DNA of 64,000 nucleotides. Source: Escherichia coli (GTDB lineage Bacteria > Pseudomonadota > Gammaproteobacteria > Enterobacterales > Enterobacteriaceae). The notes under the pieces were generated by a model. That model ran no database searches and was not told the origin of the DNA. It saw only the letters and a program-made list of their open reading frames with translations. The stretch lies in NCBI RefSeq assembly GCF_013122565.1, contig NZ_CP053258.1; one strand, 5' to 3'. Position numbers and translations under genes: made by a program. Position 1 is the first letter of the stretch. The number at the start of each line of letters is the position of its first letter. Below are positions 7,038 to 59,391 of the stretch, one piece after another.

Positions 7038-7041
7038 TATC

Positions 7042-7075
7042 TTAAGCCCTCTCCCGGTAGGTGAGGGCTTAAATG
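7042..7075 (+). terminator. hairpin terminator after ggt
   Basis: Inverted repeat aagccctctcccggtaggtgagggctt immediately after the ggt stop. Confidence 0.55.
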
Positions 7076-7097
7076 ACAAACTTAGATTGCAAATTAT

Positions 7098-7586
7098 CTA
7101 TTTCACCCGCGCCATATAATACGCATCGACATATTCACCATTACGAAAAGCGTAATTTTTGCCGGTGCCTTCTATGTGAAATCCCAATTTTTTATAGACT
7201 GTGATTGCCGGGGCGTTATCCGCAAACACCGTCAACTCAATACGATCTATCCGTAACCAGTTGTCGCACATTTCAATCAATTCGCGGATCAGGGCGCTGG
7301 CGATGCCGCGGTTGTGCCAGCGGGAGTCAACACAGATACCAAAAGTTGCAACATGACTGCGGCGTGGGCCTTGATAAGCCTCAATGAAAAGATGACCCAC
7401 TACGATGCCATCAATGCAGGCAACCAGTTGTTTAAAACCTTGGCGATCTTTCAATCTTTCTGGCCACCAGCCTTCCGAAGGATGAGGTAGTTGTAGCGTG
7501 TTGCAATACACCTCCGGCTGGGCGTGAATCTGCCTGATGGCCTCGTAATCGCGCGTTTCAGCATGGCGTATCACTATCTCACTCAT
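7098..7586 (-). CDS. yhhY: GNAT-family N-acetyltransferase YhhY
   Basis: 162-aa protein from MSEIVIRHAETRDYEAI; the ORF-track N-terminal extension (to 7664) was rejected. Confidence 0.85.
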   Translation of the reverse strand: MSEIVIRHAETRDYEAIRQIHAQPEVYCNTLQLPHPSEGWWPERLKDRQGFKQLVACIDGIVVGHLFIEAYQGPRRSHVATFGICVDSRWHNRGIASALIRELIEMCDNWLRIDRIELTVFADNAPAITVYKKLGFHIEGTGKNYAFRNGEYVDAYYMARVK

Positions 7587-7683
7587 TCCTTTGTCCTCTT
7601 TGGGGTAAATGTCCCTTTCAACATCATTGACTTTCAAATGCGAGTCAAATGCATTTTTTTGCAAAAAGTGTTGGACAAGTGCG

Positions 7684-7703
7684 AATGAGAATGATTATTA
7701 TTG
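7684..7703 (+). promoter_or_regulatory. Fur box in the ryhB promoter
   Basis: aatgagaatgattattattg resembles the Fur consensus GATAATGATAATCATTATC and lies immediately 5' of ryhB. Confidence 0.7.
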
Positions 7704-7707
7704 TCTC

Positions 7708-7797
7708 GCGATCAGGAAGACCCTCGCGGAGAACCTGAAAGCACGACATTGCTCACATTGCTTCCAGTATTACTTAGCCAGCCGGGTGCTGGCTTTT
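7708..7797 (+). ncRNA. ryhB: small regulatory RNA RyhB (iron-sparing, Fur-repressed, Hfq-dependent)
   Basis: Sequence gcgatcaggaagaccctcgcggagaacctgaaagcacgacattgctcacattgcttccagtattacttagccagccgggtgctggc followed by a T-run is recognised as RyhB; it lies in the yhhY-yhhX intergenic region with an intrinsic terminator hairpin at its 3' end. Confidence 0.9.
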
Positions 7798-7918
7798 TTT
7801 TTGATCTTTCGTTCTCAATTTATCCACGGGAGTGCTTGTGTTCGTTATGCGCACTCCAGTAGGAACCACGTCCGCTTTGCGCTAAGGTGTAAATAACCAC
7901 CTTAAAAAGGACGAAATC

Positions 7919-15239: not shown

Positions 15240-16441
15240 TGAATCTTTCAGCCAATGCACAAGCAACTCTCCTGCTAACCAGCGATTTTTCTCGCGCGGC
15301 GGCGAGTGAGTATAACCCTCTTAGTAATAGTGAATGGGGGAAGTTTGCATTATGGCTGAAGCACCAACGTATCAGTCCCGCCGATCTTCTGGTGCCGCAA
15401 CCGCAAGAGAAACTTACAGGCTGGAGCGATCCGCGTATTTCTCAGGAGCGTATTCTTGGCTTGCTGGCGCGTGGTCATAGTCTGGCGTTGGCGGTAGATA
15501 AGTGGCAACGCGCCGGTTTATGGATCTTAACCCGCGGAGATGCCGATTATCCCGTTCGCTTGAAAAACCGATTGCGAACGGATGCACCTCCCGTTTTATT
15601 TGGCTGTGGGAATAAAGCATTACTGCAAGCGGAAGGTATGGCGATTGTTGGCTCGCGAGATGCTCCGACTGACGATTTGCGCTATACCCAACAACTGGCC
15701 GCGAAACTGGCCCAACAGGGGATTTGCGTTATCTCTGGTGGTGCGCGAGGTATTGATGAATGTGCAATGGCGTCGGCACTGGAGGCCGGGGGAACTGCCG
15801 TTGGCGTATTAGCTGATAGCTTGTTAAAAACGAGCACGTTAGTGAAATGGCGTGAAGGGCTTATAGCAGGCAACCTGGTGTTGATTTCGCCGTTTTACCC
15901 AGAGGTACGTTTCACTGTCGGCAATGCGATGGCGCGGAATAAATATATTTATTGCCTTGCTGAAAGCGCAATGGTTGTACGTGCGGGAATGTCCGGTGGA
16001 ACGATAACCGGGGCGATGGAAGCATTAAAACATCAGTGGCTGCCTGTGCAGGTTAAACCAAATCAGGATATGCAATCAGCCAATTCACGATTAGTAGAAA
16101 ATGGGGCGTCATGGAGTACTGAACAGGCTGAGAATGTGACGTTCAGACTGCCAGACGTTACTGGGCTGATTTATGACAAAGCACTCCGTAACGCTCAACC
16201 AGAACTGTTTTCGCTGCATGAAGATGACGCAAATTACGCAGTAATGCCCGCGCATACGCCTGTCGATTTTTATCAACTCTTTGTGGCGGAACTGGCGATC
16301 CTTGCAAAGGAATCGATAAGTATTGAAAGGCTGGCGTCTTGTACTGGTTTAACCATCGAACAAATTCGTGTGTGGCTGAACCGCGCAGAAGAAGAGGGAA
16401 GGGTTATTCGATTGGGCGAAGGTCATTATCAGTTCAGGTAA
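15239..16441 (+). CDS. DprA/Smf-like (SLOG Rossmann-fold) DNA-processing protein with a C-terminal winged-helix-like tail
   Basis: 400 aa from MNLSANAQ; ATG overlaps the helicase TGA (TGATG). DprA core motifs MAIVGSRDAP...GICVISGGARGIDECAMASALEAGG (nt ~15737-15757); C-terminal SIERLASCTGLTIEQIRVWLNRAEEEGRVIRL looks like a winged helix. Confidence 0.75.
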   Translation: MNLSANAQATLLLTSDFSRAAASEYNPLSNSEWGKFALWLKHQRISPADLLVPQPQEKLTGWSDPRISQERILGLLARGHSLALAVDKWQRAGLWILTRGDADYPVRLKNRLRTDAPPVLFGCGNKALLQAEGMAIVGSRDAPTDDLRYTQQLAAKLAQQGICVISGGARGIDECAMASALEAGGTAVGVLADSLLKTSTLVKWREGLIAGNLVLISPFYPEVRFTVGNAMARNKYIYCLAESAMVVRAGMSGGTITGAMEALKHQWLPVQVKPNQDMQSANSRLVENGASWSTEQAENVTFRLPDVTGLIYDKALRNAQPELFSLHEDDANYAVMPAHTPVDFYQLFVAELAILAKESISIERLASCTGLTIEQIRVWLNRAEEEGRVIRLGEGHYQFR

Positions 16442-28132: not shown

Positions 28133-29650
28133 ATGGAAAGAATAATGCAAAACAGAAAATGGATTTTGACCTCGCTGGTAATGACTTTTTTCGGCATCCC
28201 CATACTGACGCAATTTTTGGCAGCGGTTGTTGCTATGCTGGGGGGCGGGCTTGCCGCTATTCTTGAGGTTTGCAATTTACTCTTTACGCCAGCAATTTAT
28301 CTTCTACTCAACGTCTTTATGCTGACTCTGGGGGCGATAATAATATTTTTCTCTGGTCGCGTGTGGGCGGGCGATAGTGCACCAGAAAAAAAAGAAATAG
28401 CCGTCTGGCGACAATGTCTTTTTTTAGTACCTGCTTTATTCACCCTGGTTGGCTGGATAATCACGCTACATCTGGCAGATTATCAATTTCGCCAGATGGG
28501 AGACGGTTGGTTGGCAAACCTTATGCTTCCCTGGTTGGGCGTTTTTTTAGTCTCATTAGTGGGTGGTGAGTACTGGTGGATAGTCATTATACCCGTTGGC
28601 GCGCATATCAGTTTTTCGCTGGGGTACGGTTGGCCGACCAGACATCTTTTAACGGGCACGTCCGGGTTACGTTGCCGTAATTCCCTCTTGTTTATCCTTC
28701 TCATGCTTGGTTTTGTCGCCGGTTACCAGGCTTATTTATATAAACAGCTTAATCCCGGCGTCGGTGTGCGTGAAAATATTGATACCTGGGCCTGGCGACC
28801 CGATAAACTCAATAATCAACTGACACCACTGCGTGGTAAACCGCAAATTCAGTTCACGCAAAACTGGCCGCGACTCGATGGTGCTACGGCGGCGTACCCA
28901 ATTTATGCCTCTGCATTTTATGCTTTAAGCGTTATACCGGAAGATTTTCACGCCAGGAAATATCTGGAGAACTCTCGTACCCCCGATGCGTATAACAGGA
29001 TTGTTAAAGGTGATGCCGATATTATTTTTGTGGCGCAGCCCTCCGGTGGGCAGAAAAAACGCGCTGAGGAATCGGGCGTCACTTTGCTGTACACGCCTTT
29101 TGCCCGTGAAGCGTTTGTTTTCATCGTCAATGCAGATAACCCGGTTAATTCCCTGACCGAACAACAAGTGCGTGACATCTTCAGTGGCGCAATTACCAAC
29201 TGGCGCACGGTTGGCGGTAACGATCAGGAGATCCAGACCTGGCAACGCCCGGAAGACTCAGGTAGCCAGACGGTGATGCAGGCGCAGGTCATGAAAAATG
29301 TACGTATGATCTCGCCGCAGGAGACCGAAGTGGCTGAAATGATGGGAGGGATGATTAAAGTTGTTGCCGAATACCGTAATACAAACAACTCAATAGGCTA
29401 CACCTTCCGCTATTACGCAACGCAAATGAATACCGATAAGAATATCAAATTGTTAGCGATTAACGGTATTGCACCGACTGCGGAAAACATCCGTAACGGC
29501 AAATATCCCTATATCGTCGATGCCTTTATGGTAACGCGGGAAAATATGACGTCAGAAACGCAAAAACTGGTGGAATGGTTTTTAACGCCGCAGGGGCAAA
29601 GCCTGGTGGAAGATGTGGGTTATGTGCCGATGTATCCAACAATGAAATAA
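28133..29650 (+). CDS. membrane-embedded protein with C-terminal PstS-like periplasmic binding domain
   Basis: 505 aa. N-terminal ~200 aa contains about 5-6 hydrophobic helices; C-terminal ~290 aa resembles PstS-family binding proteins (GATAAYPIYASAFY, WQRPEDSGSQTVMQ, VGYVPMYP). Start could be 28145. Confidence 0.55.
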   Translation: MERIMQNRKWILTSLVMTFFGIPILTQFLAAVVAMLGGGLAAILEVCNLLFTPAIYLLLNVFMLTLGAIIIFFSGRVWAGDSAPEKKEIAVWRQCLFLVPALFTLVGWIITLHLADYQFRQMGDGWLANLMLPWLGVFLVSLVGGEYWWIVIIPVGAHISFSLGYGWPTRHLLTGTSGLRCRNSLLFILLMLGFVAGYQAYLYKQLNPGVGVRENIDTWAWRPDKLNNQLTPLRGKPQIQFTQNWPRLDGATAAYPIYASAFYALSVIPEDFHARKYLENSRTPDAYNRIVKGDADIIFVAQPSGGQKKRAEESGVTLLYTPFAREAFVFIVNADNPVNSLTEQQVRDIFSGAITNWRTVGGNDQEIQTWQRPEDSGSQTVMQAQVMKNVRMISPQETEVAEMMGGMIKVVAEYRNTNNSIGYTFRYYATQMNTDKNIKLLAINGIAPTAENIRNGKYPYIVDAFMVTRENMTSETQKLVEWFLTPQGQSLVEDVGYVPMYPTMK

Positions 29651-29675
29651 CCCTTGAGAGAAGGGAATCAGGGCG

Positions 29676-30677
29676 ATGAATAAATTCACAGAAGTTTTAC
29701 TGCTAGGTGCGGTATTACTGGCGGGATACGCCGACCGGGAAGCATACTATAACAGCGTCAGGGAAGAAGAGAGTCATGGACTGACTTCTCTGCGGGGACA
29801 GCCTGAATTACGTTACAGCGAAGATTGGTCAAGATGGCCCAGAGTGTACGGCGCTACCGCCTTATACCCCCTGTATGCTTCTGCATATTATGAATTAGTA
29901 CCGGAGCCGAAAGATGCGGATCAAACCTCACTGGCCTGGCAGGCGTATGGTCTGCAGCAAACCCGAACAGCTGAAGCCTACGATAATCTGATTAAAGGTA
30001 CTGCGACTGTTATTTTTGTCGCGCAACCTTCTGAAGGGCAGAAAAAACGTGCAGAAGAAGCGGGAGTTAAGCTGAAATATACCGCGTTTGCCCGCGAAGC
30101 CTTTGTCTTTATCGTTGATATCAAAAACCCGGTGAATTCACTCAGCGAACAGCAGGTCAAAGACATTTTTAGCGGTAAAGTGAGTCGCTGGAATAAAGTC
30201 GGTGGCAGCGACGAACGCATAAAAGTGTGGCAGCGCCCGGAAGATTCCGGTAGCCAGACGGTAATGCAAGAGTTAGTTATGCAAGGCACACCGATGTTAC
30301 CCGCTAAAAAATCAACCATGGTTGATCTTATGGGTGGGTTAATTACCGAAGTCGCCGACTATCAAAACACGCCATCTTCAATCGGTTATACCTTTTATTA
30401 TTATGTTACGCGTATGAATAGTAATATGCTCAAAATGCGCAAGCAGATCAAATTATTAGCCATCAACGGCGTCGCCCCCACTGAGGAAAATATTCGCAAC
30501 GGATCTTATCCCTATATTGTGGACGCCTATATGGTGACCCGTGAAAATCCAGCACCGGAAACGCAAAAGTTTGTCGACTGTTTTTTAAGCCCGCAGGGGC
30601 AACAGTTGGTGCAGGATGTGGGGTATGTGCCTTTATACCCGATTACGAACTCTCGTAAAAAGGATTTTGAAAAATGA
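29676..30677 (+). CDS. secreted PstS-like periplasmic binding-domain protein, paralog of the preceding gene
   Basis: 333 aa with N-terminal signal peptide; shares GATALYPLYASAYY, WQRPEDSGSQTVMQ and VGYVPLYP with the upstream gene. Confidence 0.55.
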   Translation: MNKFTEVLLLGAVLLAGYADREAYYNSVREEESHGLTSLRGQPELRYSEDWSRWPRVYGATALYPLYASAYYELVPEPKDADQTSLAWQAYGLQQTRTAEAYDNLIKGTATVIFVAQPSEGQKKRAEEAGVKLKYTAFAREAFVFIVDIKNPVNSLSEQQVKDIFSGKVSRWNKVGGSDERIKVWQRPEDSGSQTVMQELVMQGTPMLPAKKSTMVDLMGGLITEVADYQNTPSSIGYTFYYYVTRMNSNMLKMRKQIKLLAINGVAPTEENIRNGSYPYIVDAYMVTRENPAPETQKFVDCFLSPQGQQLVQDVGYVPLYPITNSRKKDFEK

Positions 30678-30952
30678 AAATATCAATAAGTAAACTTAGT
30701 GAATTTAAAAAGGTTTCTTTATTATTTCTGGCCTACTCATTATTTATTACTGCTGGGTGTGTCAGTCATCAGAATGTTACTGAAAGTATAAAAGAAAAAC
30801 AGAGTTATAATATTACAAGGATACAGGGGAAACCCGTATTACAAATTCCCGAAAAGGAAGCAACGTGGTTGACCGTGGCGAGGGCCACTACGTTATATCC
30901 ATTGTACTCTTCGGCATATCACATGGTTATAGTTGAACCCAGTGGACACTGA
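30674..30952 (+). pseudogene. truncated third PstS-like paralog with lipoprotein signal peptide
   Basis: 92 aa; lipobox ITAGC, then only the first ~45 aa of the binding domain (IQGKPVLQIPE...ATTLYPLYSSAYH) before a stop; ATGA overlap with the upstream gene; very AT-rich DNA follows. Confidence 0.5.
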
Positions 30953-31027
30953 TTCTGATAATATAGAAAAATCAATGATTAACGTCTCTGTTAATATGGG
31001 TATTACTCAGTAAAGGTAAGAAAAATT

Positions 31028-31219
31028 ATGCTGAAACGATTATTTTTTATTATTCTTATTTTATCCGCAACGGGATGTTCTATTGTTGACACCTCTCTGG
31101 AGAAAAAAGACTTACTTAATTTATCTGTATATGAAAATAATATTGTTGATAATTCAGTGTTAATAAGAGTTGTAGCCAGTCAAAAGGTAAAAGAGACCTG
31201 GTATATATGCAACGAATAA
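31028..31219 (+). CDS. small putative lipoprotein (hypothetical)
   Basis: 63 aa; signal peptide with lipobox LSATGC; in the AT-rich block. Confidence 0.35.
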   Translation: MLKRLFFIILILSATGCSIVDTSLEKKDLLNLSVYENNIVDNSVLIRVVASQKVKETWYICNE

Positions 31220-31671
31220 TAGAAAAAGCTTTAACGGTTTTGCTTATGATTTACGCCGGATCAGCAGCTGCCGAAGGTAAAGTGAACGATTTATGCCACA
31301 TAGGTGATCGTGTAGATAAACTTGAGATTACAAATTATCCTCATGATTACGAGTCGCTAGTTGCAGTTGATGAGAAGCGATTGAATGAAATTTATAAATA
31401 CAAGGTTGAAATTACCTATCTTGATAATAAAGAAAGTAAAAAAATTGTTGAACTATTACAAATGGATTATGCGGAACAAGAAGAAAATGTTACTGATGTG
31501 AGGTGGCGGGTGAATATCACTTCATATGGAAATAAAAAATGTGATATCTATTTTGATGGTTTTGGCTTATGTGGAAAAATTAATGGTGAGAATGTCTGTT
31601 TCAGGCATAACGAAATGATACGGTGGATTGAGTCTCATATTTCTGTATTTCTACATAGTGTTAACGAATGA
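31207..31671 (+). CDS. small secreted hypothetical protein
   Basis: 154 aa; signal peptide ending AGSAAAEG; AT-rich codon usage. Confidence 0.4.
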   Translation: MQRIIEKALTVLLMIYAGSAAAEGKVNDLCHIGDRVDKLEITNYPHDYESLVAVDEKRLNEIYKYKVEITYLDNKESKKIVELLQMDYAEQEENVTDVRWRVNITSYGNKKCDIYFDGFGLCGKINGENVCFRHNEMIRWIESHISVFLHSVNE

Positions 31672-31690
31672 ATGTGAAAAAGGAATTTAT

Positions 31691-32143
31691 ATGCAATTTT
31701 TATTTAAAAATAATAAATTATTTTTTATAAGGATAAGGTTAGTTTCGGTTATTTTATTTTTATTTATGAGTACTTCCTTGTATGCTAAAAATCCATGTGA
31801 AGGACTTAAAGGTGATTTACCTGCGGCGCAGTTAATTCCACTTAAGAAAAATATTGCCAGGCAGTTGAATTCTGAAATGGAACAGGTAGTAGAAGTTAAT
31901 AAAGTTGAAATATTATCTTTCGATACCTTGCAGGAATGGTCAATTGTTGGTGTCGCTACCGGAGTATCAGATGATGCATTGTTAATTTATAAAGGGAATA
32001 TCACTAAAACTGATTATGTGGCATTATTTGGAGGCGCTGCAAGTATTAACGATGACATGATCCAATGGATAAACCAGAAAGCGCCGGGAATTCCAGATAA
32101 GTTGGCACAATGTTTTGCGTGGGGAGCTGTATATCGTGATTGA
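31691..32143 (+). CDS. small secreted hypothetical protein
   Basis: 150 aa from MQFLFKNNK with aagga Shine-Dalgarno 8 nt upstream; signal peptide ending LYAKNP. Confidence 0.4.
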   Translation: MQFLFKNNKLFFIRIRLVSVILFLFMSTSLYAKNPCEGLKGDLPAAQLIPLKKNIARQLNSEMEQVVEVNKVEILSFDTLQEWSIVGVATGVSDDALLIYKGNITKTDYVALFGGAASINDDMIQWINQKAPGIPDKLAQCFAWGAVYRD

Positions 32144-32161
32144 TAATAAAAGGACAACCAA

Positions 32162-32869
32162 ATGGAATTAGTTGATACGTTATTTGCAAGCCTCGCCGGT
32201 ACTGATCCTTTCACAGGCGTGGATATTACGATTGCCAAATGCGAATCGGCATATTGGGCCGAGGGCATTGTTCAGCTGCTCATTAACCAGGCCCTGGATG
32301 AAGGGGAAAAGTTCGTCGGTGCTGCCGGTCTTGAGGGATTGCTTCGATATGATGTCACATTAAATATTGGCTTAACGTCCAGCAATGTATGGCCGGGGTT
32401 TTCCCTCGATACCGCCACCATTGGCCGTCTTTGTGCCTGTGGTGCTGACTTTGGATTTGACCCTTATATCAGTGATGTACCAGATGTTCAATGTGACCTG
32501 AACACGACAAATGACTTCACCGTTCAATTTACGGCGATGCTCAACCCGGAGCGGGCGATCATAGCAAAGCGCCCGCTTAAAAAATGTGACTCCTGGATTG
32601 AGGATGTCTATATCTTTCAGGTCTTTAAAGAAGCCTGGAAGTTTCATAACGATAACAGCTTACGAGGATTTCGCGATAAGCAGGCTGAACTGAAACTCTA
32701 CGCGCGTCATTACTCAGTGGAAAATTGTATAGAGGAAAGCTGCCGTGACTGTAATAGTTGTATTCGGCCCAGCTTTTCCCTTTCTCGTAGTGCCATTATT
32801 CGCCTGAACGCGGCGAATGCTCGTTTTGTTTATCAACCGTTTACACGCGACCAGCGGGCGAGGGGGTAA
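32162..32869 (+). CDS. hypothetical protein, Cys-rich C-terminal part
   Basis: 235-aa ORF with no recognisable family; stop lies 2 nt before the next start. Confidence 0.4.
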   Translation: MELVDTLFASLAGTDPFTGVDITIAKCESAYWAEGIVQLLINQALDEGEKFVGAAGLEGLLRYDVTLNIGLTSSNVWPGFSLDTATIGRLCACGADFGFDPYISDVPDVQCDLNTTNDFTVQFTAMLNPERAIIAKRPLKKCDSWIEDVYIFQVFKEAWKFHNDNSLRGFRDKQAELKLYARHYSVENCIEESCRDCNSCIRPSFSLSRSAIIRLNAANARFVYQPFTRDQRARG

Positions 32870-32871
32870 TT

Positions 32872-33660
32872 ATGCAACCCAGTCCCGCCATGCAGAATAT
32901 TATTGCCCATGCCTGGGCGATATTTCATTTTTATCCTGCACCGCAACAGTTCAATATTTGCGTTCCTTGCTGTGTCAGCGAAGAGGTCGCGCAGGCGTTA
33001 CGGCAAACACCGTTACGTCAATTAACCGTTGAAATGATATATGAATGGAACAGTAGCGCGAGGCCTTTTGAACAACAGAATGATGAAATCCGTTACCTCC
33101 TTCCGAGACTGCTGGAATTACTGGCTCACGGTCATTGTCCTGCCATAAATGAAGAGTTATGCCTGAAACGTATTGGCGCTATTTCCCTGGACACCTGGCA
33201 GCCGGAGGAGCGTGATGTACTTACCGATTTTTCCCGCCAGTATATTCGCGATTTATTACTTACCCCGACATTGACCGATCTTGAATCTGCCCTCGTGATG
33301 TTTCATTTTGCCGGACTATCTATAACGGCTTTATTAGATGAGGCGCTGAACACGCCTGGCTATTGGGCTATCGCTTCGCTGGCCTATTTTTTGTATATCA
33401 AGCGTCCAAACGGCGAATTACGTAACGCGTTTATCTCACGCAAGCCGGATGGTGAAGTGATAACGCAGCAAATTAACGCCTGGATTGCGCAATCATGTCA
33501 CGCGCTGGCAGAACGCGCCGCGGCGGCGATTGAATGCTCGCCATCCCTTCCCGGCGGTGGACACACGGAGTACAGTGTTGACCTGAGCTACCTGATTGAC
33601 GAAAGCCTTTGTGCGCTTGTTGATTATCAATTGCTCTGGACGATGGACCGTAATGAATAA
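32872..33660 (+). CDS. hypothetical protein, paralog A of a tandem pair
   Basis: 262 aa beginning MQPSPAMQ; shares N-terminal Cys motif, NDEIRYLLPRL and other blocks with the next gene. Confidence 0.45.
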   Translation: MQPSPAMQNIIAHAWAIFHFYPAPQQFNICVPCCVSEEVAQALRQTPLRQLTVEMIYEWNSSARPFEQQNDEIRYLLPRLLELLAHGHCPAINEELCLKRIGAISLDTWQPEERDVLTDFSRQYIRDLLLTPTLTDLESALVMFHFAGLSITALLDEALNTPGYWAIASLAYFLYIKRPNGELRNAFISRKPDGEVITQQINAWIAQSCHALAERAAAAIECSPSLPGGGHTEYSVDLSYLIDESLCALVDYQLLWTMDRNE

Positions 33661-33671
33661 GGAGATTCACA

Positions 33672-34448
33672 ATGCAACCCAGCCCCGCCATGCAGGCATT
33701 AATTGAGCAGATTTATCATATTTTTCGTCGTTATCCGGTGCCGTCGAGATTTCATGTTTGTTGTCCTTACTGCTTTAGCGAAGAACAACAACAAGCCTTA
33801 AAAGGGGTTTCACTGCGTGCCATACCTTTCCCTTTATTACATGCCTGGGGAACAAGTATTGGCCCTAACCCACAAAATGATAATGAGATTCGCTATTTAT
33901 TACCCAGATTGTTTGACTTTATTGCCCAAAGGCAATTTCCAGGCATTTATGAAGGCTGCTGTTTACAGAGAATAGCAGAAGCAGATAACCAGAACTGGCG
34001 AGCGGATGAACTACAAATAATTAGCGATTTCGCCTATTTATATATGCAGGATTGGGTGTCGGTTAAGGAAGTTGTGGAGCTGGAAATAATATTAGAAATG
34101 TTTTATCGCGGTGGTATAAAGATTGAACCCTTACTTGACGCTATTATGTCCATTTCCGGTTACTGGCCGACGGCGTCAATGGCATGTTTGCTCTGGCGTA
34201 ACAGTAAAGAATACGTCGAAAATAGCGAGTTTGAGCAGAGTGATGATGATAAAACCATTACCACCCAAATCAATACCTGGGCTAGAAATAATCATCCTTT
34301 GCTGAAAGAACGCGCGCGGCAAGCGATTGAGAACCCGCTAAAACAGCCCGAACAGGGCACACGATATCAGGTCTGGGAAGACGACTGGATGATTGATGAG
34401 TGTTTGTGCGCAATGTATGACGCATCATCCGAATCATCAGGACAATAA
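33672..34448 (+). CDS. hypothetical protein, paralog B of a tandem pair
   Basis: 258 aa beginning MQPSPAMQ; paralogous to 32872..33660. Confidence 0.45.
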   Translation: MQPSPAMQALIEQIYHIFRRYPVPSRFHVCCPYCFSEEQQQALKGVSLRAIPFPLLHAWGTSIGPNPQNDNEIRYLLPRLFDFIAQRQFPGIYEGCCLQRIAEADNQNWRADELQIISDFAYLYMQDWVSVKEVVELEIILEMFYRGGIKIEPLLDAIMSISGYWPTASMACLLWRNSKEYVENSEFEQSDDDKTITTQINTWARNNHPLLKERARQAIENPLKQPEQGTRYQVWEDDWMIDECLCAMYDASSESSGQ

Positions 34449-34450
34449 AG

Positions 34451-34633
34451 ATGAATAAAATCAAACTTTATATTCCTCCGCTATTTCTCGGCTTTGTTAT
34501 TGTGCCGCTGTTGGTGTGGCCGACGGTGGTTGCGCTGGCGGCTTTTGGTATCACGCTGAGTTTTCTGGGGGAGTTACTGTTCTTAATCCCGATCATAGTC
34601 CGACGTATGTCACTTCTGGAAGCACAACTTTGA
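34451..34633 (+). CDS. small hydrophobic membrane protein, possibly the N-terminal part of a stop-interrupted gene
   Basis: 60 aa with two predicted transmembrane helices; same reading frame as the following ORF, separated by a single TGA. Confidence 0.3.
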   Translation: MNKIKLYIPPLFLGFVIVPLLVWPTVVALAAFGITLSFLGELLFLIPIIVRRMSLLEAQL

Positions 34634-34666
34634 TTATCGGCTGAATATACGCTTGTTTTCTGTGCA

Positions 34667-35050
34667 ATGGTGGGCGTTGGTTGGCAATTCTCTCGCAGAA
34701 CGTCACCTGAATTAAAAAACAGACTGCATTTTTGGCTGGTCTTTACACCGGTTTATTTCTGGTTGCTTCTGTGGAATATCATTTTCTATATCGGGCCAGC
34801 GAAAAATGCATTGCTGGAAAATATCCGCAATTTCTTTTTAACAATTGTCTGGTTACCGCTGAATTTTTCGCCACTTTGGTCCCAACCGTGGACTGACTTT
34901 GTCGGTCCAATAAGCGCACAGCTTGGTTTTGCGTTGGGATATTATTGCCAGTGGCGTAGCAAAAATAGAAGCCAGGGGCAGAAGTGGGGTGAGTGGGGAA
35001 CGTGTCTTAGTTTTGTTACGTTGGGTATGATGGCATGGGTTTTGCGGTAA
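34667..35050 (+). CDS. hydrophobic membrane protein, possibly the C-terminal part of a stop-interrupted gene
   Basis: 127 aa with predicted transmembrane helices; in frame with 34451..34633. Confidence 0.3.
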   Translation: MVGVGWQFSRRTSPELKNRLHFWLVFTPVYFWLLLWNIIFYIGPAKNALLENIRNFFLTIVWLPLNFSPLWSQPWTDFVGPISAQLGFALGYYCQWRSKNRSQGQKWGEWGTCLSFVTLGMMAWVLR

Positions 35051-35100
35051 TTTCCTGAATCAAAAAGCAGGCCAGATTGTTGACGAAGTGCGCTTTGTTC

Positions 35101-35199
35101 ATGCCGGATGCGGCGTGAACGCCTTATTCGGCCTACAAAATCATGCAAATTCAATATATTGCATAAACCACGTAGGCTTGATAAGCGTAGCGCATCAGG
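35101..35199. repeat. BIME: two inverted REP units
   Basis: gccggatgcggcgtgaacgccttattcggcctac and gtaggcttgataagcgtagcgcatcagg in inverted orientation. Confidence 0.7.
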
Positions 35200-35263
35200 A
35201 AATTTTGTGTTTGTCATCAGTCTCAGGCCAGATTGAAATCTGACCTGATCACCTTACGTTAAT

Positions 35264-43009: not shown

Positions 43010-43495
43010 TTACTCCAGAGTAATGGGATACAGTAAGGTAAGTGACTGGAATGGTGAAGGTACAAAGGCATACTTCAGATAGAAATTGCGTACTGAATCG
43101 TCTAAAGCATGAACAATGAGCGCACGAACCCCTACCTGTTGAGCTATGGACATTGTGCGATAGACTGCATCTTTCAACAATGCGACGCCCAGCCCTTTAC
43201 CTGCCCAGGCTTGATCAATTGCCAGTCTGCCTAATACGACAACAGGCAACGATTCGGGAGCATTACGTCGCATGGCTCCAGGGGTCAAATTACGTTGAAT
43301 ACTGCCTGTAGAAAGGCAGTAATAGCCGATTACCTGACGGGTATTGGCAATACAGATAACGTAAACACGAGACAGACCGGAGCTGTGATTTTTTAACTCT
43401 TTCTTTTTTAGCCATTCATTCATCCCGTGATCGGAACAGCAAAAGTCAGCCAGATTATGTTCAGACGTTAGGGGAGTAGGAGGCGTTATTCCCAT
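43010..43495 (-). CDS. GNAT-family acetyltransferase toxin of a type II toxin-antitoxin pair (TacT/KacT/ItaT-like)
   Basis: 161 aa; GNAT acetyl-CoA motif VLGRLAIDQAWAGKGLGVALL; 10-nt overlap with the upstream DUF1778-type gene. Confidence 0.7.
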   Translation of the reverse strand: MGITPPTPLTSEHNLADFCCSDHGMNEWLKKKELKNHSSGLSRVYVICIANTRQVIGYYCLSTGSIQRNLTPGAMRRNAPESLPVVVLGRLAIDQAWAGKGLGVALLKDAVYRTMSIAQQVGVRALIVHALDDSVRNFYLKYAFVPSPFQSLTLLYPITLE

Positions 43496-43764
43496 GGCGA
43501 TTTACGATTCATCAACGCGTTAATTTTGGCCTGACGCTCAGCAGTGATGGGGGCGTCCAGGGCAGCCAGAAATGCATCGTATTGCTCGTCATCAACGATG
43601 AATAGTCGTTGATCTAATAAGATGTCTTGCGCTTCACGGCATGCGGCATCCAGCATAAAATCAGTGCGCGATTTTGCGACCAGATTCGCTGCCATATCAA
43701 TCAGGTCACGCTGTGAGGCTTTCGCCCTGATATTGATTGGCGCTTCTTTGCTTTCCGGTTTCAT
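43486..43764 (-). CDS. DUF1778-type (ribbon-helix-helix) antitoxin partner of the GNAT toxin
   Basis: 92 aa; N-terminal PINIRAKASQRDLIDMAANL typical of TacA/KacA-like antitoxins; first in the operon. Confidence 0.7.
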   Translation of the reverse strand: MKPESKEAPINIRAKASQRDLIDMAANLVAKSRTDFMLDAACREAQDILLDQRLFIVDDEQYDAFLAALDAPITAERQAKINALMNRKSPWE

Positions 43765-49552: not shown

Positions 49553-51637
49553 ATGGAAAGCAAACGTCTGGATAATGCCGCGCTGGCGGCGGGGATTAGC
49601 CCCAATTACATCAATGCCCACGGTAAACCGCAGTCGATTAGCGCCGAAACCAAACGGCGTTTGCTTGACGCGATGCATCAACGTACCGCCACGAAAGTGG
49701 CGGTAACGCCAGTCCCGAATGTCATGGTTTATACCAGCGGCAAAAAAATGCCGATGGTGGTGGAGGGCAGCGGCGAATATAGCTGGCTGCTGACCACCGA
49801 AGAAGGAACGCAGTACAAAGGCCATGTAACTGGGGGCAAAGCGTTCAATCTACCGACGAAGCTGCCGGAAGGTTATCACACGCTGACGCTTACCCAGGAA
49901 GACCAGCGCGCGCATTGCAGGGTGATTGTCGCCCCGAAACGCTGTTACGAACCGCAGGCGTTGCTGAATAAACAAAAGCTGTGGGGTGCCTGCGTCCAGC
50001 TTTATACGCTGCGATCGGAAAAAAACTGGGGTATTGGGGATTTTGGCGATCTCAAAGCGATGCTGGTGGATGTGGCAAAACGTGGCGGGTCGTTCATCGG
50101 CCTGAACCCGATTCATGCGCTCTATCCGGCAAATCCGGAGAGCGCCAGCCCATACAGCCCGTCTTCTCGCCGCTGGCTGAATGTGATTTATATCGACGTT
50201 AACGCCGTTGAAGATTTCCATCTTAGCGAAGAGGCTCAGGCCTGGTGGCAGTTGCCGACCACGCAACAGACGCTGCAACAGGCGCGGGATGCCGACTGGG
50301 TCGATTACTCCACGGTTACCGCCCTAAAAATGACAGCATTACGAATGGCGTGGAAAGGTTTCGCGCAACGTGATGATGAGCAGATGGCCGCGTTTCGCCA
50401 GTTTGTTGCAGATCAAGGCGACAGCCTGTTCTGGCAGGCAGCCTTTGATGCGCTACATGCCCAGCAAGTGAAAGAGGACGAAATGCGCTGGGGCTGGCCT
50501 GCATGGCCAGAGATGTATCAGAACGTGGATTCACCAGAAGTGCGTCAGTTCTGCGCAGAACATCGCGATGACGTTGATTTTTATCTCTGGTTGCAGTGGC
50601 TGGCTTACAGCCAGTTTGCCGCCTGCTGGGAGATAAGCCAGGGCTATGAAATGCCGATTGGCTTGTATCGTGATCTGGCGGTTGGCGTAGCGGAAGGTGG
50701 GGCGGAAACCTGGTGCGACCGTGAACTGTATTGCCTGAAAGCGTCGGTTGGCGCGCCGCCGGATATCCTCGGCCCGTTGGGGCAGAACTGGGGATTGCCG
50801 CCGATGGATCCGCATATCATCACCGCGCGTGCCTATGAACCGTTTATCGAGCTGTTGCGTGCCAATATGCAAAACTGCGGCGCATTACGAATTGACCATG
50901 TGATGTCGATGCTGCGTTTGTGGTGGATACCGTATGGCGAGACGGCAGATCAGGGCGCGTATGTACACTATCCGGTGGATGATCTGCTTTCGATTCTGGC
51001 ACTCGAAAGTAAACGTCATCGCTGTATGGTGATTGGTGAAGATCTCGGTACCGTACCCGTAGAGATTGTTGGTAAGCTGCGCAGCAGCGGTGTGTACTCC
51101 TACAAAGTGCTCTATTTCGAAAACGACCACGAGAAGACGTTCCGTGCACCGAAAGCGTATCCGGAGCAGTCGATGGCGGTTGCGGCGACACATGACCTGC
51201 CTACGCTACGCGGTTACTGGGAGAGCGGGGATCTAACGCTGGGCAAAACCCTGGGGCTGTATCCGGATGAAGTGGTACTGCGCGGTCTGTATCAGGATCG
51301 CGAACTGGCGAAGCAAGGACTGCTGGATGCTCTGCATAAATATGGTTGTCTGCCAAAACGTGCCGGGCATAAGGCATCGTTGATGTCGATGACGCCGACG
51401 CTTAATCGTGGTTTGCAGCGCTACATTGCCGACAGTAACAGTGCTCTGTTAGGACTACAGCCGGAAGACTGGCTGGATATGGCCGAACCGGTGAATATTC
51501 CTGGCACCAGTTACCAGTATAAAAACTGGCGACGCAAGCTTTCCGCAACGCTTGAGTCGATGTTTGCCGATGATGGCGTGAACAAGTTGCTGAAGGATTT
51601 GGACAGACGGCGCAGAGCTGCAGCGAAGAAGAAGTAG
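49553..51637 (+). CDS. malQ: 4-alpha-glucanotransferase (amylomaltase)
   Basis: 694 aa; GH77 family. Confidence 0.95.
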   Translation: MESKRLDNAALAAGISPNYINAHGKPQSISAETKRRLLDAMHQRTATKVAVTPVPNVMVYTSGKKMPMVVEGSGEYSWLLTTEEGTQYKGHVTGGKAFNLPTKLPEGYHTLTLTQEDQRAHCRVIVAPKRCYEPQALLNKQKLWGACVQLYTLRSEKNWGIGDFGDLKAMLVDVAKRGGSFIGLNPIHALYPANPESASPYSPSSRRWLNVIYIDVNAVEDFHLSEEAQAWWQLPTTQQTLQQARDADWVDYSTVTALKMTALRMAWKGFAQRDDEQMAAFRQFVADQGDSLFWQAAFDALHAQQVKEDEMRWGWPAWPEMYQNVDSPEVRQFCAEHRDDVDFYLWLQWLAYSQFAACWEISQGYEMPIGLYRDLAVGVAEGGAETWCDRELYCLKASVGAPPDILGPLGQNWGLPPMDPHIITARAYEPFIELLRANMQNCGALRIDHVMSMLRLWWIPYGETADQGAYVHYPVDDLLSILALESKRHRCMVIGEDLGTVPVEIVGKLRSSGVYSYKVLYFENDHEKTFRAPKAYPEQSMAVAATHDLPTLRGYWESGDLTLGKTLGLYPDEVVLRGLYQDRELAKQGLLDALHKYGCLPKRAGHKASLMSMTPTLNRGLQRYIADSNSALLGLQPEDWLDMAEPVNIPGTSYQYKNWRRKLSATLESMFADDGVNKLLKDLDRRRRAAAKKK

Positions 51638-51644
51638 AGTGCGG

Positions 51645-51675
51645 TTGATGCCGGATGCGATGCATCCGGCAGTCA
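51645..51675. terminator. hairpin between the convergent malQ and gntT genes
   Basis: gccggatgcgatgcatccggc perfect inverted repeat. Confidence 0.55.
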
Positions 51676-51681
51676 GTGTTA

Positions 51682-52998
51682 TCAAATCACCATATTCAGC
51701 AGCAGACAGCCTACCAGACCGCACACCGAGATAATGGTTTCCAGCATCGACCAGGATTTGATGGTCTCGCCGATAGTCAGGTTAAAGTACTCTTTGAACA
51801 GCCAGAAGCCCGGATCGTTCACATGAGAGAAAATCACACTACCGGAACCAACCGCAATAACCATCAGCTCCGGGCTAACACCCGTCGTTGCAATCAGCGG
51901 TGCCGCGATACCACCCGCAGTGATTGCCGCAACGGTTGCGGAACCCAGCGCGATACGCAGTACGGCAGCAATCGACCAGGCCATAAGCAGCGGAGAAATG
52001 TTGGTTTCGTGCATCATGGAAGCAATGTATTTGTCCACGCCGCTGTCTACCAGCACCTGCTTGAACGCACCGCCACCACCGATAATCAACAGCATCATCG
52101 CAATGATTTTGATGGAAGAAACCAGCGTGTCGTTAATCTGATCCATTGAACGACCACGGTTCAGACCAAAGGTGAACATCGCAATCAGCACGGCAATCAG
52201 CGTAGCCATTACCGGGTCACCGAGGAACTCCGCTACCGGCAGGAACGCGTGACCTTTCGGCAGGATCATTTCGGCAATCGCACGCATCGCCATCAGCACA
52301 ACCGGCACCAGAGAGGTCCAGACGCTGACGCCAAAGCTCGGCATCTCTTCTTCGCTGAAGGTTTTCGCGCTGTAGAGACCTTCCGGGATTGGCTTATCGA
52401 TACCTTTCAACACGCGAGCGTAAACCGGACCGGCGAGAATCACGGTCGGGATTGCCAGAATAGTACCGTACAGCAGGGTTTTACCCATATCGGCATTGAA
52501 AATGGTGGCAATCGCAGTCGGGCCCGGATGCGGTGGCAGGAAGCCGTGGGTCACAGACAGTGCAGCCGCCATTGGTACACCAACATACAGCAGTGGAATA
52601 TTCGCGGAAGCCGCGATGGTAAACACCAGCGGCAGCATCAGCACAAAGCCCACTTCATAGAACAGGGCAAAACCAACGGTAAAACCGGTCAGTACCACCG
52701 CCCACTGGATGTGTTTTTTACCAAATTTGGCAATCAGCGTGGTGGCGATACGTTGTGCGCCACCGCAGTCTGCCAGCATTTTGCCCAGCATCGCGCCAAA
52801 ACCCATGATCAGGGCAAGGCTACCGAGCGTCCCGCCGACACCGGCTTTGATGGAGCCAATAACTTTATCCAACGGCATCCCTTGCATTAATCCAACAGCA
52901 AGCGCCACGAGGACGAGAGCGATGAAGCCGTTCATTTTGAAGCGGATCATCATGAGCAACAACAAGATTACACCGATAGCAACAATGACTAATGGCAT
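51682..52998 (-). CDS. gntT: high-affinity gluconate:H+ symporter (GntP family)
   Basis: 438-aa polytopic GntP-family transporter. Confidence 0.93.
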   Translation of the reverse strand: MPLVIVAIGVILLLLMMIRFKMNGFIALVLVALAVGLMQGMPLDKVIGSIKAGVGGTLGSLALIMGFGAMLGKMLADCGGAQRIATTLIAKFGKKHIQWAVVLTGFTVGFALFYEVGFVLMLPLVFTIAASANIPLLYVGVPMAAALSVTHGFLPPHPGPTAIATIFNADMGKTLLYGTILAIPTVILAGPVYARVLKGIDKPIPEGLYSAKTFSEEEMPSFGVSVWTSLVPVVLMAMRAIAEMILPKGHAFLPVAEFLGDPVMATLIAVLIAMFTFGLNRGRSMDQINDTLVSSIKIIAMMLLIIGGGGAFKQVLVDSGVDKYIASMMHETNISPLLMAWSIAAVLRIALGSATVAAITAGGIAAPLIATTGVSPELMVIAVGSGSVIFSHVNDPGFWLFKEYFNLTIGETIKSWSMLETIISVCGLVGCLLLNMVI

Positions 52999-53154
52999 GA
53001 TTTACCTGGCCTTTCATTTGTTATGGGTAACGTCAATTTTCTGACGACAAACTCTAATTATCCCAATCGGGAACAGAGATATTGCGGCACCACGACTGAT
53101 ACCCACTAAAACTAATTATTGTAGTCAGATGTCAGGAGTATGTTTGGTACCCAT

Positions 53155-53176
53155 GTGAATGATACGGGTAACATCT
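53155..53176 (-). promoter_or_regulatory. GntR operator in the gntT promoter
   Basis: Minus-strand reading agatgttacccgtatcattca matches the GntR operator half-site type ATGTTACC. Confidence 0.65.
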
Positions 53177-53302
53177 GGCGTTTGAGAATCACCAGAGCGG
53201 GGTAAATTTAAATTATGAGAGGTTGGTCATATTATCGCGGAGAAACGAAGGGAGGGATTTGCCAAAGCAATGCTGCGCCAACGTCTGGCACATGTTCAAC
53301 GT

Positions 53303-53358
<56 letters not shown>

Positions 53359-53934
53359 TTAGTAGTAGGAGTGTTCGCCGCGCTGGTGTTCGGTGAGATC
53401 GCGCACACCTTTCAGCTCCGGGAATTCGTTCAGCAGCTGCTTCTCGATCCCTTCTTTCAGCGTCACATCGACCATGGAACAACCGTTACAGCCGCCGCCA
53501 AATTGCAGAATGGCGTAACCGTCTTCGGTGATTTCCATCAGCGACACGCGACCACCGTGACCAGCCAGTTGCGGGTTGATCTGCGACTGCAACATATACT
53601 CAACGCGCTCCATCAGCGGCGCATCGTCTGCCACTTTACGCATTTTGGCGTTCGGGGCTTTCAACGTTAACTGGGAACCCAACTGGTCGGTAACAAAATC
53701 GATCTCTGCATCTTCCAGGTAAGGAGCGCTTAACTCATCAACATACGCGGTCAGCAGGTCAAATTTCAGGGCGGTGTCGGTGGCTTCCACAGCGTCCGGC
53801 GGACAATAAGAAACGCCACATTCAGCGTTAGGCGTGCCAGGGTTAATCACAAATACGCGGATTTGTGTCCCTTCTTCCTGATTTGCCAGCAGTTTGGCAA
53901 AGTGCGCTTGTGCAGCATCTGAAATACGGATCAT
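53359..53934 (-). CDS. nfuA: Fe/S cluster carrier protein NfuA
   Basis: 191 aa; degenerate A-type N-domain plus Nfu C-domain with CxxC (GGGCNGCSM). Confidence 0.93.
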
Positions 53935-53992
53935 AGTAATGGCCTAATAGTTGACTATTTTAGTTGGTTATAATACGCCCATCATCGAGGCT

Positions 53993-55484
<1,492 letters not shown>

Positions 55485-55510
55485 GCACTTTTGAATGGCG
55501 AGACAGAACT

Positions 55511-56387
55511 TTACTGGCTCGCCGCAGCCAATTCTTCCTCTGACAGCCCGGTAAATCGCAGAACGTCCTCAAGAGGGACTCCGGCATCCAGCATGGTTTT
55601 GGCAATAGCACGTATACCTTTCTGAAACCCCTCCTGCCGCAATCTTTCCGCAATAGTCATTAAACTCTCCTTGTGTTTCGGTGATCGTTCGGCCACACCG
55701 TCGATAAAATCGTTAAAACGTACCGCATCGCCAGTCTGTAGTATGTAATTAAACAGCCCTTTGATTTGTCTGTCATTAGCGTATCCACTACTTAATAAGC
55801 AGGCCATTTGCTCTACCAGCCCCAGCAGGTCGCGTTGACGAATATATTTTTGAATTAACTCCAGCAGCGCCATGCGTCGGTGCTGCATGATTTCATCATC
55901 AGGCATGACGGTGACATCAATCAGCGGAAATGCAGAGGCATAAAGCTGCCTTGCCAGTTTGGGATCGGCAAAACAATCCAGCCAACACAGCGAATAGGGA
56001 TAGGGGCTTTCAATACCGTGATAAAACAACAATGGCACTACCATCGGCAACGTTTTGTGTCCGGCATCCAGGTGGTTTTGCATTGCGGCAATGGCGTAGC
56101 GCATCATGCGAAATGCGATCAATTTGTTTGAGGTGCTTTGATGTTCAATCAGGCAATAGATATATCCTGGCCCTTGTTCCGTTTTCACCGACCACAGCAC
56201 GTCGGAATAACTTTCACGCAGATCGTCATCGATAAAGCTGCTCGACTCCAGCTTGAGGGTTTTCATATCACAGCGCGCGAATGGGTGCCGGTAAATGAAA
56301 CGCAAGAAAATCGCGAGCCGTCTCCGGTTGGCGTAAAAAGAGTTTGAACAGCGCATCGTGTGGGGTGGAACTCTGCTTTTTGCTCAT
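55511..56387 (-). pseudogene. rpnA: Rpn-family recombination-promoting nuclease (RpnA/YhgA-like) with an apparent frameshift near the 5' end
   Basis: ATG at 56387 with an aagga Shine-Dalgarno opens [39 protein letters not shown] and hits TGA at 56268-56270; the rest of the protein ([16 protein letters not shown]...) continues in another frame (ORF 55511..56356). Confidence 0.6.
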
Positions 56388-56589
56388 GGCGTTCCTTCAC
56401 CTGTTGTTTGAATGCCGCGACTTTACGCGCCACTCTGCGCCTGTGCATTAGCGAGTTTTCATCCCTGCGAGACGCTTTCAGAGGAACTTACGTCGCGCTG
56501 CAAGAATTGCATTTTTATGGAAAGCCGCACGCAAAAAAGCCCGGATGCAAACGCATACCGGGCTTTTCAAAACAGGCGATGGAGTATGG

Positions 56590-56826
56590 TTAACGCAGCG
56601 CCCACCACTCGCGCAGACAGGCTTTGCCTTCCGGGCAGCTTTTACAACTGCCAGAGAGGCAGCCGTCAGGTTCTTCCTGAATCCGCACGGCTTTGCCCAT
56701 GCTTTCCAGCTGTTGCAGCATGGCGTTAATCATTGGCTGCGGCGTGTTCAATGTCTGGCTTATCTGGGCCGCTTCCATACGGCCCCGTAACGCCAGCAAA
56801 TCACGTACCTGAATAAGTGAAGCCAT
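56590..56826 (-). CDS. feoC: ferrous iron transport protein FeoC (winged-helix with Cys cluster)
   Basis: 78 aa from [15 protein letters not shown]; C-terminal Cys cluster [15 protein letters not shown]. Confidence 0.9.
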
Positions 56827-59147
56827 TAATGGCAATCACCGGTGGTGCTGGCTGCGCAGCAACTACTTACCGACTTGCGGGTTGCCAGCAGTTCGATATC
56901 CACCCGGCTACGCGCGCGGCGCAGCAGACCGATAACCACGATGTTAAACAGGATAACCGTCAGAATGCACACCAGGCTGTAAGTTGGGTGCTGACTGTAG
57001 CTGGCGACTTGATAGAACAATGTTGCCAGCGAGTAAGCGATATTCAGCCCCCACAGGATGGAGAAGCCCATCCAGCCACGGCTTGATTCACGGGCGATGG
57101 CTCCCATCACCGAGATACACGGTACATACAGCAGGACGAAAATCAGGTAGCTGTATGCGGCAGCTGCGCTACCGAATTTCTGATCCATCACGCCCATCGC
57201 CCCGGTACCCATTTCGCCGTCGCCTTTGCTGGCTTCAATCGGGTTCATCAGTACGCTAAGGCTGAAGGTGTCTTTCAGGCTCTGCCAGGTTTCATCTACC
57301 GCACTGAACAGCTCTTCACCGAGGTTAAACTCTGCCGGATTGAACTCTTCGTCCTGAATATTTTCTGCGGTGTAGAGGGTGTTGAGCGTACCCACCACCA
57401 CTTCTTTCGCCATTGCGCCCGTAAACAGGCCAACCGTTGCCTGCCAGTTATCTTCATGCACGCCAATCGGCTTGAAGACTGGGGTGATCACCCGGCTGAC
57501 GGAAGCCAGCGCCGAGTCGTTGATGTTATCGACGATTTTCCCGCTCAACGAGAAGCTGTTGAAAGCGCTCAGGAAAATGCTGACGATGATAATCACTTTA
57601 CCAGCACGCAGAACGAAGCCTTTCAGACGCTGCCAGGTCTGGATAATCAGGCTTTTAACGTGTGGTACATGGTAGACCGGCAGCTCCATGACAAACGGCG
57701 TCGCTTCACCGCGCATGATGGTGTACTTGAGCATCAGGCCAGTCAGCACCGCCATCACAATACCGAGCATATACAGCGAGAAGACCGCCAGCGCGCCGTT
57801 CTGCCCGAAGAAGGCAGCCGCAAAGACCGCGAAGATAGCCAGACGCGCGCCGCAGGACATAAACGGTGCCATCATAATGGTCATCAGACGTTCACGCGGT
57901 GCATCAAGCGTACGTGCGCCCATTACCGACGGTACGTTACAACCGAAACCAACGATCAGCGGCACAAAGGATTTCCCCGGCAAGCCCAGCGCCTGCATCA
58001 GGCGGTCCATCACAAACGCTGCACGCGCCATATAGCCGGAGTCCTCAAGGAAGGAGAGGAACAGGTACATCATGCCGATCTGCGGCACCAGTGGCAGCAC
58101 GGTGTTAATACCGCCACCCAGGCCCTGGGCGAGGAAGATAGTCAGCCAGTCCGGGAAGTGGAGCGTGTAGCCAATCCATTGAATACCATGCACAAATAGC
58201 GCCACGGAGCCGACGTCAAACAGCGGCTGTAACGCCCCGCCGATGTTGATAGCCAGCAGGAACATCAGGTACATCACAAAGAGGAAAATCGGCAGACCGA
58301 GGAAACGGTTGAGCACGATTTTATCTACCGCAGTGGTGAAACGGCTGGGTTCTGCCGTCAGGGTGTTGCTTACCACATCACAGATGGCCGCAATGCACTG
58401 GTAACGCGCATCGGCAATGTGCAGCGCCGGATCATCCATTTCATTACGCAGACGGGCGAGGGCGGCATCCAGATGCTGCGACGCTTCACCGGCGTATGCG
58501 CGGCTGTAGATATCGCCTTCCAGCATTTGCAGGCCCAGCCAGCGACGTTGTTTCAGCGGGATGTCGGAAGGCATCACTTTTGCCAGTGAATCTGCTTCGT
58601 TGAGCAGCGGCTGTGCGTAATGCACCAGTTCCACATTCTCGTTAGCTTTATAGCGATCAATCGCCAGCTTGAGCGCTTCAATACCGCGACCACGGGTTGA
58701 AACCAGCGGGATCACTGGGCAGCCAAGACGCGCCGACAGAGCATCAATTTCAATACGAATATTTTGCTTCTCGGCAATGTCGAGCATGTTCAGCGCCACG
58801 ATGCAGGGAATGCCGAGTTCCAGCAGTTGTAGCGTCAGGTACAGGTTACGCTCAAGGTTAGACGCATCCACCACGTTAATCAGCAGGTCGGCGTCGCCAC
58901 TCAAAATGTAGTGACAGGCGATTTGCTCATCGAGCGAGGTCTGCGATGAGATGGTGGTCAGAGAATAGGTGCCGGGCAGGTCCACCAGCGTGACCTGATG
59001 ATCGGTGGTGGAGAATTGCCCTTCTTTACGTTCGACGGTAACGCCAGCCCAGTTACCTACACGCTGACGTGCGCCAGTGAGCTGGTTAAATAAGGTTGTC
59101 TTGCCAGAATTTGGATTACCAATTAAGCCTATGGTTAATTTTTTCAT
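56826..59147 (-). CDS. feoB: ferrous iron transporter FeoB
   Basis: 773 aa from [18 protein letters not shown] (G-protein domain) plus polytopic membrane domain. Confidence 0.95.
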
Positions 59148-59163
59148 TGTTGTTATCACCGTA

Positions 59164-59391
59164 TTAACAGGAAACCGCTTCCACTTCTAATAAGGCCAGA
59201 TCTTTTTTGCGTAATACCAGGCTCACACGACGGGTTTCGATATGAATGGGGTCGCCGAGTGGAGCGACGCGCACCACATTAAAAGAGGAGCCAGGTAACA
59301 TGCCAAGAGAAAGCAGTTTTTGGCGATATGCCGGGCTGATTTCACGGGAAAAGCCAGTGATTTTCCACGCAGTATCTGGAGTGTATTGCAT
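59164..59391 (-). CDS. feoA: ferrous iron transport protein FeoA
   Basis: 75 aa; SH3-like FeoA. Confidence 0.92.

Follow-up and report, generated by a model that had tools for sequence, protein, structure and literature searches.

In the 64,000-nt stretch of Escherichia coli DNA analysed here (the window), rpnA (yhgA) very probably carries a genuine, recent and strain-private loss-of-function mutation, in which the loss of two bases would leave the toxin RpnA_L unmade and the nested antitoxin RpnA_S unaffected. The locus lies on the minus strand at positions 55511-56387 and measures 877 nt, as against 879 nt in intact alleles, and is flanked by feoC (56826-56593) and by the convergent bioH (54714-55484). 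The gene order feoABC-rpnA-bioH-gntX is the same as in the annotated E. coli strains A30 and O157, so that the gene occupies the orthologous position. RpnA of K-12 (NF007361, PF04754, PMC5350276), a recombination-promoting PD-(D/E)XK nuclease, has the same place between feoC and bioH and can be aligned over residues 1-292 once the window sequence is repaired, whereas the frame in the window is broken at codons 37-40.

The split of the reading frame was evident at the level of open reading frames. A Shine-Dalgarno sequence, AAGGA (56393-56397, minus strand), which is unchanged in intact alleles, precedes the rpnA start codon (ATG, 56387-56385); direct reading gives a spacing of N5, and not the N8 given in an earlier note on this DNA. 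From this start, 39 codons are followed by a premature TGA at 56270-56268 (5' fragment, 56268-56387, minus strand), and this fragment bears the codon of the catalytic residue D11 (56357-56355). The rest of the Rpn protein is found in the +1 frame, where the longest open reading frame spans 56356-55511 (281 aa). After the break, the ATG at 56266, which is the Met42 codon of the intact protein, supplies the first conserved Met and opens a 3' fragment of 251 codons (55511-56266, minus strand) that begins MKTLKLESS, ends AAASQ, and holds the codons of D63 (56203-56201), E82 (56146-56144) and Q84 (56140-56138). Only one base separates the premature stop from this ATG (TGA-T-ATG), and no Shine-Dalgarno sequence is present within the 20 nt upstream of it.

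Profile searches divided the protein at the same place. The 39-aa piece matched positions 1-32 of Pfam PF04754 (Transposase_31, YhgA-like) with E = 8.6e-9 and the long open reading frame matched positions 31-202 with E = 4.1e-76, the domain thus being divided between two frames. With the NCBIfam RpnA equivalog NF007361, for which the curated cut-off is 583 bits, the 39-aa piece scored 75.9 bits (model positions 1-39) and the 251-aa piece 568.2 bits (model positions 42-292), and neither reached the cut-off. It was passed solely by the version with two bases restored in silico, a 292-aa RpnA (668.1 bits over 1-292), and this repaired protein had 98% amino acid identity with WP_059320739.1 of strain A30; its frame showed no other defect and no second lesion. 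The gene therefore has the form of a frameshift pseudogene, with a reading frame broken relative to intact orthologues and homology resuming in another frame. These open reading frames, the split Pfam and NCBIfam matches and the alignment to intact alleles bear out the suggestion of the earlier note that rpnA is split near its start and two bases short.

For comparison, the junction was aligned with the annotated intact rpnA of A30 and O157:H7, with the corresponding sequences in seven further public assemblies, and with that of SRR11451197, the nearest relative that could be found. The intact alleles read GCGCTCTGTGAT at the junction and are exactly two bases longer than the window. All intact alleles examined carry CATTCACGCGCTCTGTGATATG, and the window carries CATTCGCGCG--CTGTGATATG, that is, CATTCGCGCGCTGTGATATG. 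The deletion can be placed anywhere within 56271-56280 (minus strand; window TTCGCGCGCTGTGA, intact alleles TTCACGCGCTCTGTGA), and the deletion-bearing junction sequence is CGCGCGCTGTGA. Two descriptions of the change are equally parsimonious on these alignments: loss of CT/TC from CTCT with an A>G substitution (His37Arg), or loss of CA with a T>G substitution. No intermediate allele, which would have told the lost pair and the order of the substitution and the deletion, occurred in any collection searched. Slippage in the CTCT repeat appears the more plausible deletion mechanism, and most likely one CT unit would have been lost during replication. A missing TG from a TG run had been proposed before; restoring it does return the reading frame and the same amino acids, but the CTCT of the intact alleles rules it out as the ancestral sequence, the lost pair being CT/TC or CA instead. 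The repaired protein was also looked up exactly in a collection of 15 billion proteins in its Arg37 and His37 versions, and both were absent.

A sequencing or assembly error, with a strain that really has an intact rpnA, would be one alternative, and two points speak in its favour: the lesion is unique to one strain in every collection searched, and short indel errors are common in long-read assemblies. The Logan collection, however, has both RpnA fragment proteins on one 60,219-bp contig built from the read set SRR11451224, and this contig was 100% identical to window positions 52511-59266 over 6,756 nt, junction included. This read set probably comes from the same isolate, and the comparison is one of assemblies. 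Because the k-mer-based Logan assembly was made independently from reads, an assembler error is ruled out and the lesion is placed in the DNA itself, although the mutation could still have arisen in the sequenced culture. Moreover, the context of the deletion is not a homopolymer. For a check of frame breaks, the 48 annotated genes of the collinear A30 region were translated and searched against the window, where 45 had a counterpart; rpnA was the only one of the 45 broken across frames, and 43 of the 44 others were full length in a single frame, the exception being ugpB, which is cut by the window edge. With rpnA as the sole broken gene, the assembly is not littered with indels. We therefore regard an artefact as very unlikely. 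Between pseudogenisation and sequencing error, the two readings left side by side in the earlier note, the identical SRR11451224 junction and the intact state of 43 of 44 genes favour pseudogenisation, with the amendment that the locus is only half dead, RpnA_S being intact.

The lesion was not recovered elsewhere. An 81-nt junction probe matched 4,658 of 5,426 complete E. coli genomes, none of them with the identical junction; the best identity was 96.4%, the value expected from the 2-nt gap together with one SNP, and the possibility that intact orthologues share these nucleotides and simply start elsewhere thus found no example among complete E. coli genomes. The exact junction pattern had no match in 100,044 species-representative genomes and in JGI metagenome contigs, and these sets likewise gave none for a gapped pattern able to detect intact Arg37 alleles as well. 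The closest relative found, SRR11451197, belongs to the same run series and has an intact 292-aa rpnA; its GntX protein is identical to that of the window and its DNA is 98.8% identical over 6 kb. The 2-bp lesion therefore appears private to this strain. In codons 1-243, comparison of the repaired rpnA with A30 shows 19 synonymous changes and 5 non-synonymous ones (dN/dS 0.067), and comparison with O157 shows 23 and 6 (dN/dS 0.065); between two intact alleles the ratio is 0.080. This low dN/dS (about 0.07), together with the lack of a second lesion, points to purifying selection until very recently and so to a recent event.

The strain itself is an outlier among the available genomes. Over the 24 kb from 40000 to 64000 its identity was at most 97.9% to any of the 5,426 complete RefSeq E. 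coli genomes, its feoB reached at most 98.9% identity to theirs, and exactly this FeoB protein is known from a single NCBI contig (QJU26593.1). Such divergence suggests that the strain may belong to a deep-branching E. coli lineage or a cryptic clade.

Other natural frameshift alleles of rpnA were found, which differ from that of the window in position and sequence, and none of which has its 2-bp deletion. In L004-L007, one base is lost in GCACCC, giving products of 41 aa and 251 aa whose stop and start codons overlap (ATGA) at Met42; in L009 and L011, a T5 run in the 5' end of rpnA is shortened to T4, and in L010 a T is gained. These indels are independent, lie within the first 40 codons, and each leave an open reading frame from Met42. 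In addition, an 89-aa RpnA fragment occurs in Shigella flexneri records, on 69 contigs. The RpnA_S region is intact in all these lesions (fragment proteins P0003, P0013-P0015 and P0017-P0019). As these alleles were found by their resemblance to the window fragments, they do not demonstrate a hotspot, and among the homopolymer changes some may be errors of assembly. Queries of 81 nt did not find these alleles in complete RefSeq genomes (best identity 98.8%, a gap being scored as a mismatch); only the top matches of these queries are interpretable, and since those span 82 bases they represent intact genes.

The consequence for the nuclease can be read from the catalytic residues. Kingston et al. 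2017 (PMC5350276) found that any one of the changes D11A, D63A, E82A and Q84K removes all RpnA phenotypes, namely recombination, toxicity and SOS induction. The window retains the four codons, with D11 in the 39-aa open reading frame and D63, E82 and Q84 in the 251-aa one, and they never occur on one polypeptide. Translation from the normal start would end at the TGA after 39 codons, and because D11 is separated from the other three residues, the full-length PD-(D/E)XK nuclease RpnA_L, the toxic component, should be lost. Judged from the sequence, then, this allele has probably lost its nuclease activity.

It is conceivable that the gene still functions, either through a programmed +1 frameshift at CUG-UGA-U, giving a full-length protein, or through reinitiation at TGA-T-ATG, giving a nuclease in two pieces or truncated at its N-terminus. 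The stop and the in-frame Met42 ATG lie one base apart, an arrangement favourable for reinitiation that could permit some synthesis of the 251-aa product, and the natural allele L004-L007 has its overlapping ATGA at the same Met. The ATG at 56266 has no Shine-Dalgarno sequence, however, and a product started at Met42 would be without D11, of which the D11A change is a null mutation. As for frameshifting, prfB (RF2) offers a likeness in its in-frame UGA followed by continuation in the +1 frame, but rpnA has neither the slippery CUU-U, nor an upstream Shine-Dalgarno stimulator (the upstream sequence is CGCGCG), nor conservation among orthologues: the frameshift was seen in none of the 4,658 genomes, and close relatives are in frame. 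The tRNA-Leu on CUG would be unable to re-pair on UGU, and local RNA folding (z = 0.18) was no better than that of shuffled sequence. Programmed ribosomal frameshifting was thus rejected, since it is unconserved and has no +1 re-pairing at CUG-UGA-U, no stimulator and no RNA structure, and a gene that still functions by either route is extremely improbable. A further, unlikely possibility is that a reinitiated 251-aa protein, lacking D11 and keeping the C-terminal dimerisation domain, would act as a second, dominant-negative decoy.

The 3' end of the gene has a different status from the rest. Previous studies described the rpn genes as genes within genes, in which RpnA_S is made from its own start on a short transcript arising inside the gene (Zhong et al. 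2023, PMC10327210). It is a 49-aa antitoxin that binds to the toxic full-length RpnA_L and inhibits it (PMC10327210). Experiments in K-12 placed the internal translation start at M244, mutating the K240/E241 codons abolished RpnA_S, and RpnA_L was below detection under laboratory conditions (PMC10327210); the transcription start of RpnA_S is known only from K-12 dRNA-seq data cited in the same paper. In the window, the RpnA_S cistron is intact (55511-55660, minus strand, 49 aa), its ATG being the M244 codon, and its product is identical to that of A30 and aligns end to end (1-49) with PDB 7TH0, the crystal structure of RpnA_S. A ribosome-binding site, AAGGAG, is located at 55667-55672 (minus strand), 6 nt before the ATG at 55660; it coincides with the K240/E241 codons and is the same in A30 and O157. 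Over the 160 nt that precede M244, a few synonymous SNPs are the only differences from intact alleles. A simple sigma-70 consensus scan returned no site anywhere in the region and is hence uninformative on the RpnA_S promoter. With a ribosome-binding site 600 nt downstream of the lesion, and presumably the internal promoter known from K-12, RpnA_S should be unaffected and probably continues to be made, as what would be an orphan antitoxin.

Set beside the known RpnL/RpnS toxin-antitoxin and anti-phage systems, the locus agrees in its intact nested RpnA_S, with internal start and ribosome-binding site, and differs in its toxin half, which is disrupted by the TGA after 39 codons, so that what is left would be an antitoxin lacking its cognate toxin. 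Most likely, therefore, the locus has lost its toxin and kept its antitoxin. The paper on these systems covers loss of rpnS, and toxin loss is not termed a pseudogene or a frameshift there (PMC10327210). That the locus now serves as an orphan-antitoxin module, in which RpnA_S inhibits an incoming RpnA_L with the same C-terminal variant (anti-addiction or immunity), is an unlikely reading. Because RpnA_L is below detection in K-12, its loss is probably nearly neutral.

Another reading is that the mutation, though real in the sequenced DNA, arose in laboratory culture and is not a natural allele. The lesion is private to one isolate, the gene has no accumulated decay, and RpnL proteins are toxic, inactivating mutations being readily selected in the laboratory (PMC10327210). 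Chromosomal RpnA_L of K-12, however, is not only undetectable but also checked by RpnA_S, so that such selection should be weak, and the present data do not tell a laboratory origin from a recent natural mutation; we consider a laboratory origin highly improbable. The preferred reading stays that of a recent loss of the toxin in this strain.

The C-terminal part of rpnA also shows signs of exchange. A 1.8-kb segment (53921-55726), which takes in bioH and gntX completely and rpnA from about codon 221 to its 3' end, matches the SRR11451197 contig with 100% identity, and its flanks are about 1.2% different. Codons 244-292 are identical to A30 and highly diverged from O157 (dS 0.51, dN 0.19). The pattern resembles a recombination tract with one end inside rpnA, in keeping with the strain-to-strain C-terminal hypervariability reported for RpnL/RpnS systems, which the C-terminal domain of rpnA likewise shows here. 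Elsewhere in its genome, SRR11451197 has about 520 extra bases between gntT and malQ (L014, 6012-6533) that are missing at window positions 51632-51662, and the 117-aa open reading frame in them had no Pfam match.

Several other regions of the window deserve mention. Between glgP and glpD, two tandem PBP_like_2 / PstS-family substrate-binding genes (28133-30677) are present, the first of which (505 aa) is intact in the window and annotated as frameshifted in A30. They are followed, up to glpD, by about 4.5 kb (30680-35260) that is missing from A30 and contains several open reading frames, among them two adjacent paralogues (32872-33660, 262 aa, and 33672-34448, 258 aa) that both begin MQPSPAMQ; these two and a 235-aa open reading frame (32162-32869) had no Pfam match. 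Between gntU and yhgN (13143-16441), a gene for a 698-aa RecQ-family helicase shares 94 nt with a gene for a 431-aa DprA/SLOG-domain protein, and this pair, which is also found in A30, is possibly an accessory module for DNA processing or defence. At 7040-7900, the yrhA, yrhB and yrhD genes of A30 have no counterpart in the window, and the yhhY homologue nearby is only 82.7% identical. The RyhB sRNA is located at 7737-7801 and the ES036/CssrF sRNA at 35137-35179. A GNAT-family acetyltransferase and DUF1778 pair between rtcA and malT (43013-43764) is intact, 98-100% identical to the A30 pair, and has the architecture of a TacT/TacA-like toxin-antitoxin system.

Taken alone the lesion matters little, being one more strain-specific pseudogene of a non-essential and mildly toxic accessory nuclease gene; indeed, it is an ordinary strain-private frameshift pseudogene. 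For annotation, rpnA should be flagged as a frameshifted pseudogene and the nested RpnA_S cistron should be kept nevertheless. As a natural toxin-minus, antitoxin-plus allele, it could be used together with the other N-terminal frameshifts to probe the role of RpnS independent of RpnL. If loss of the toxin alone, upstream of M244, is enriched across E. coli and Shigella, this would indicate that selection shapes gene-within-gene toxin-antitoxin systems.
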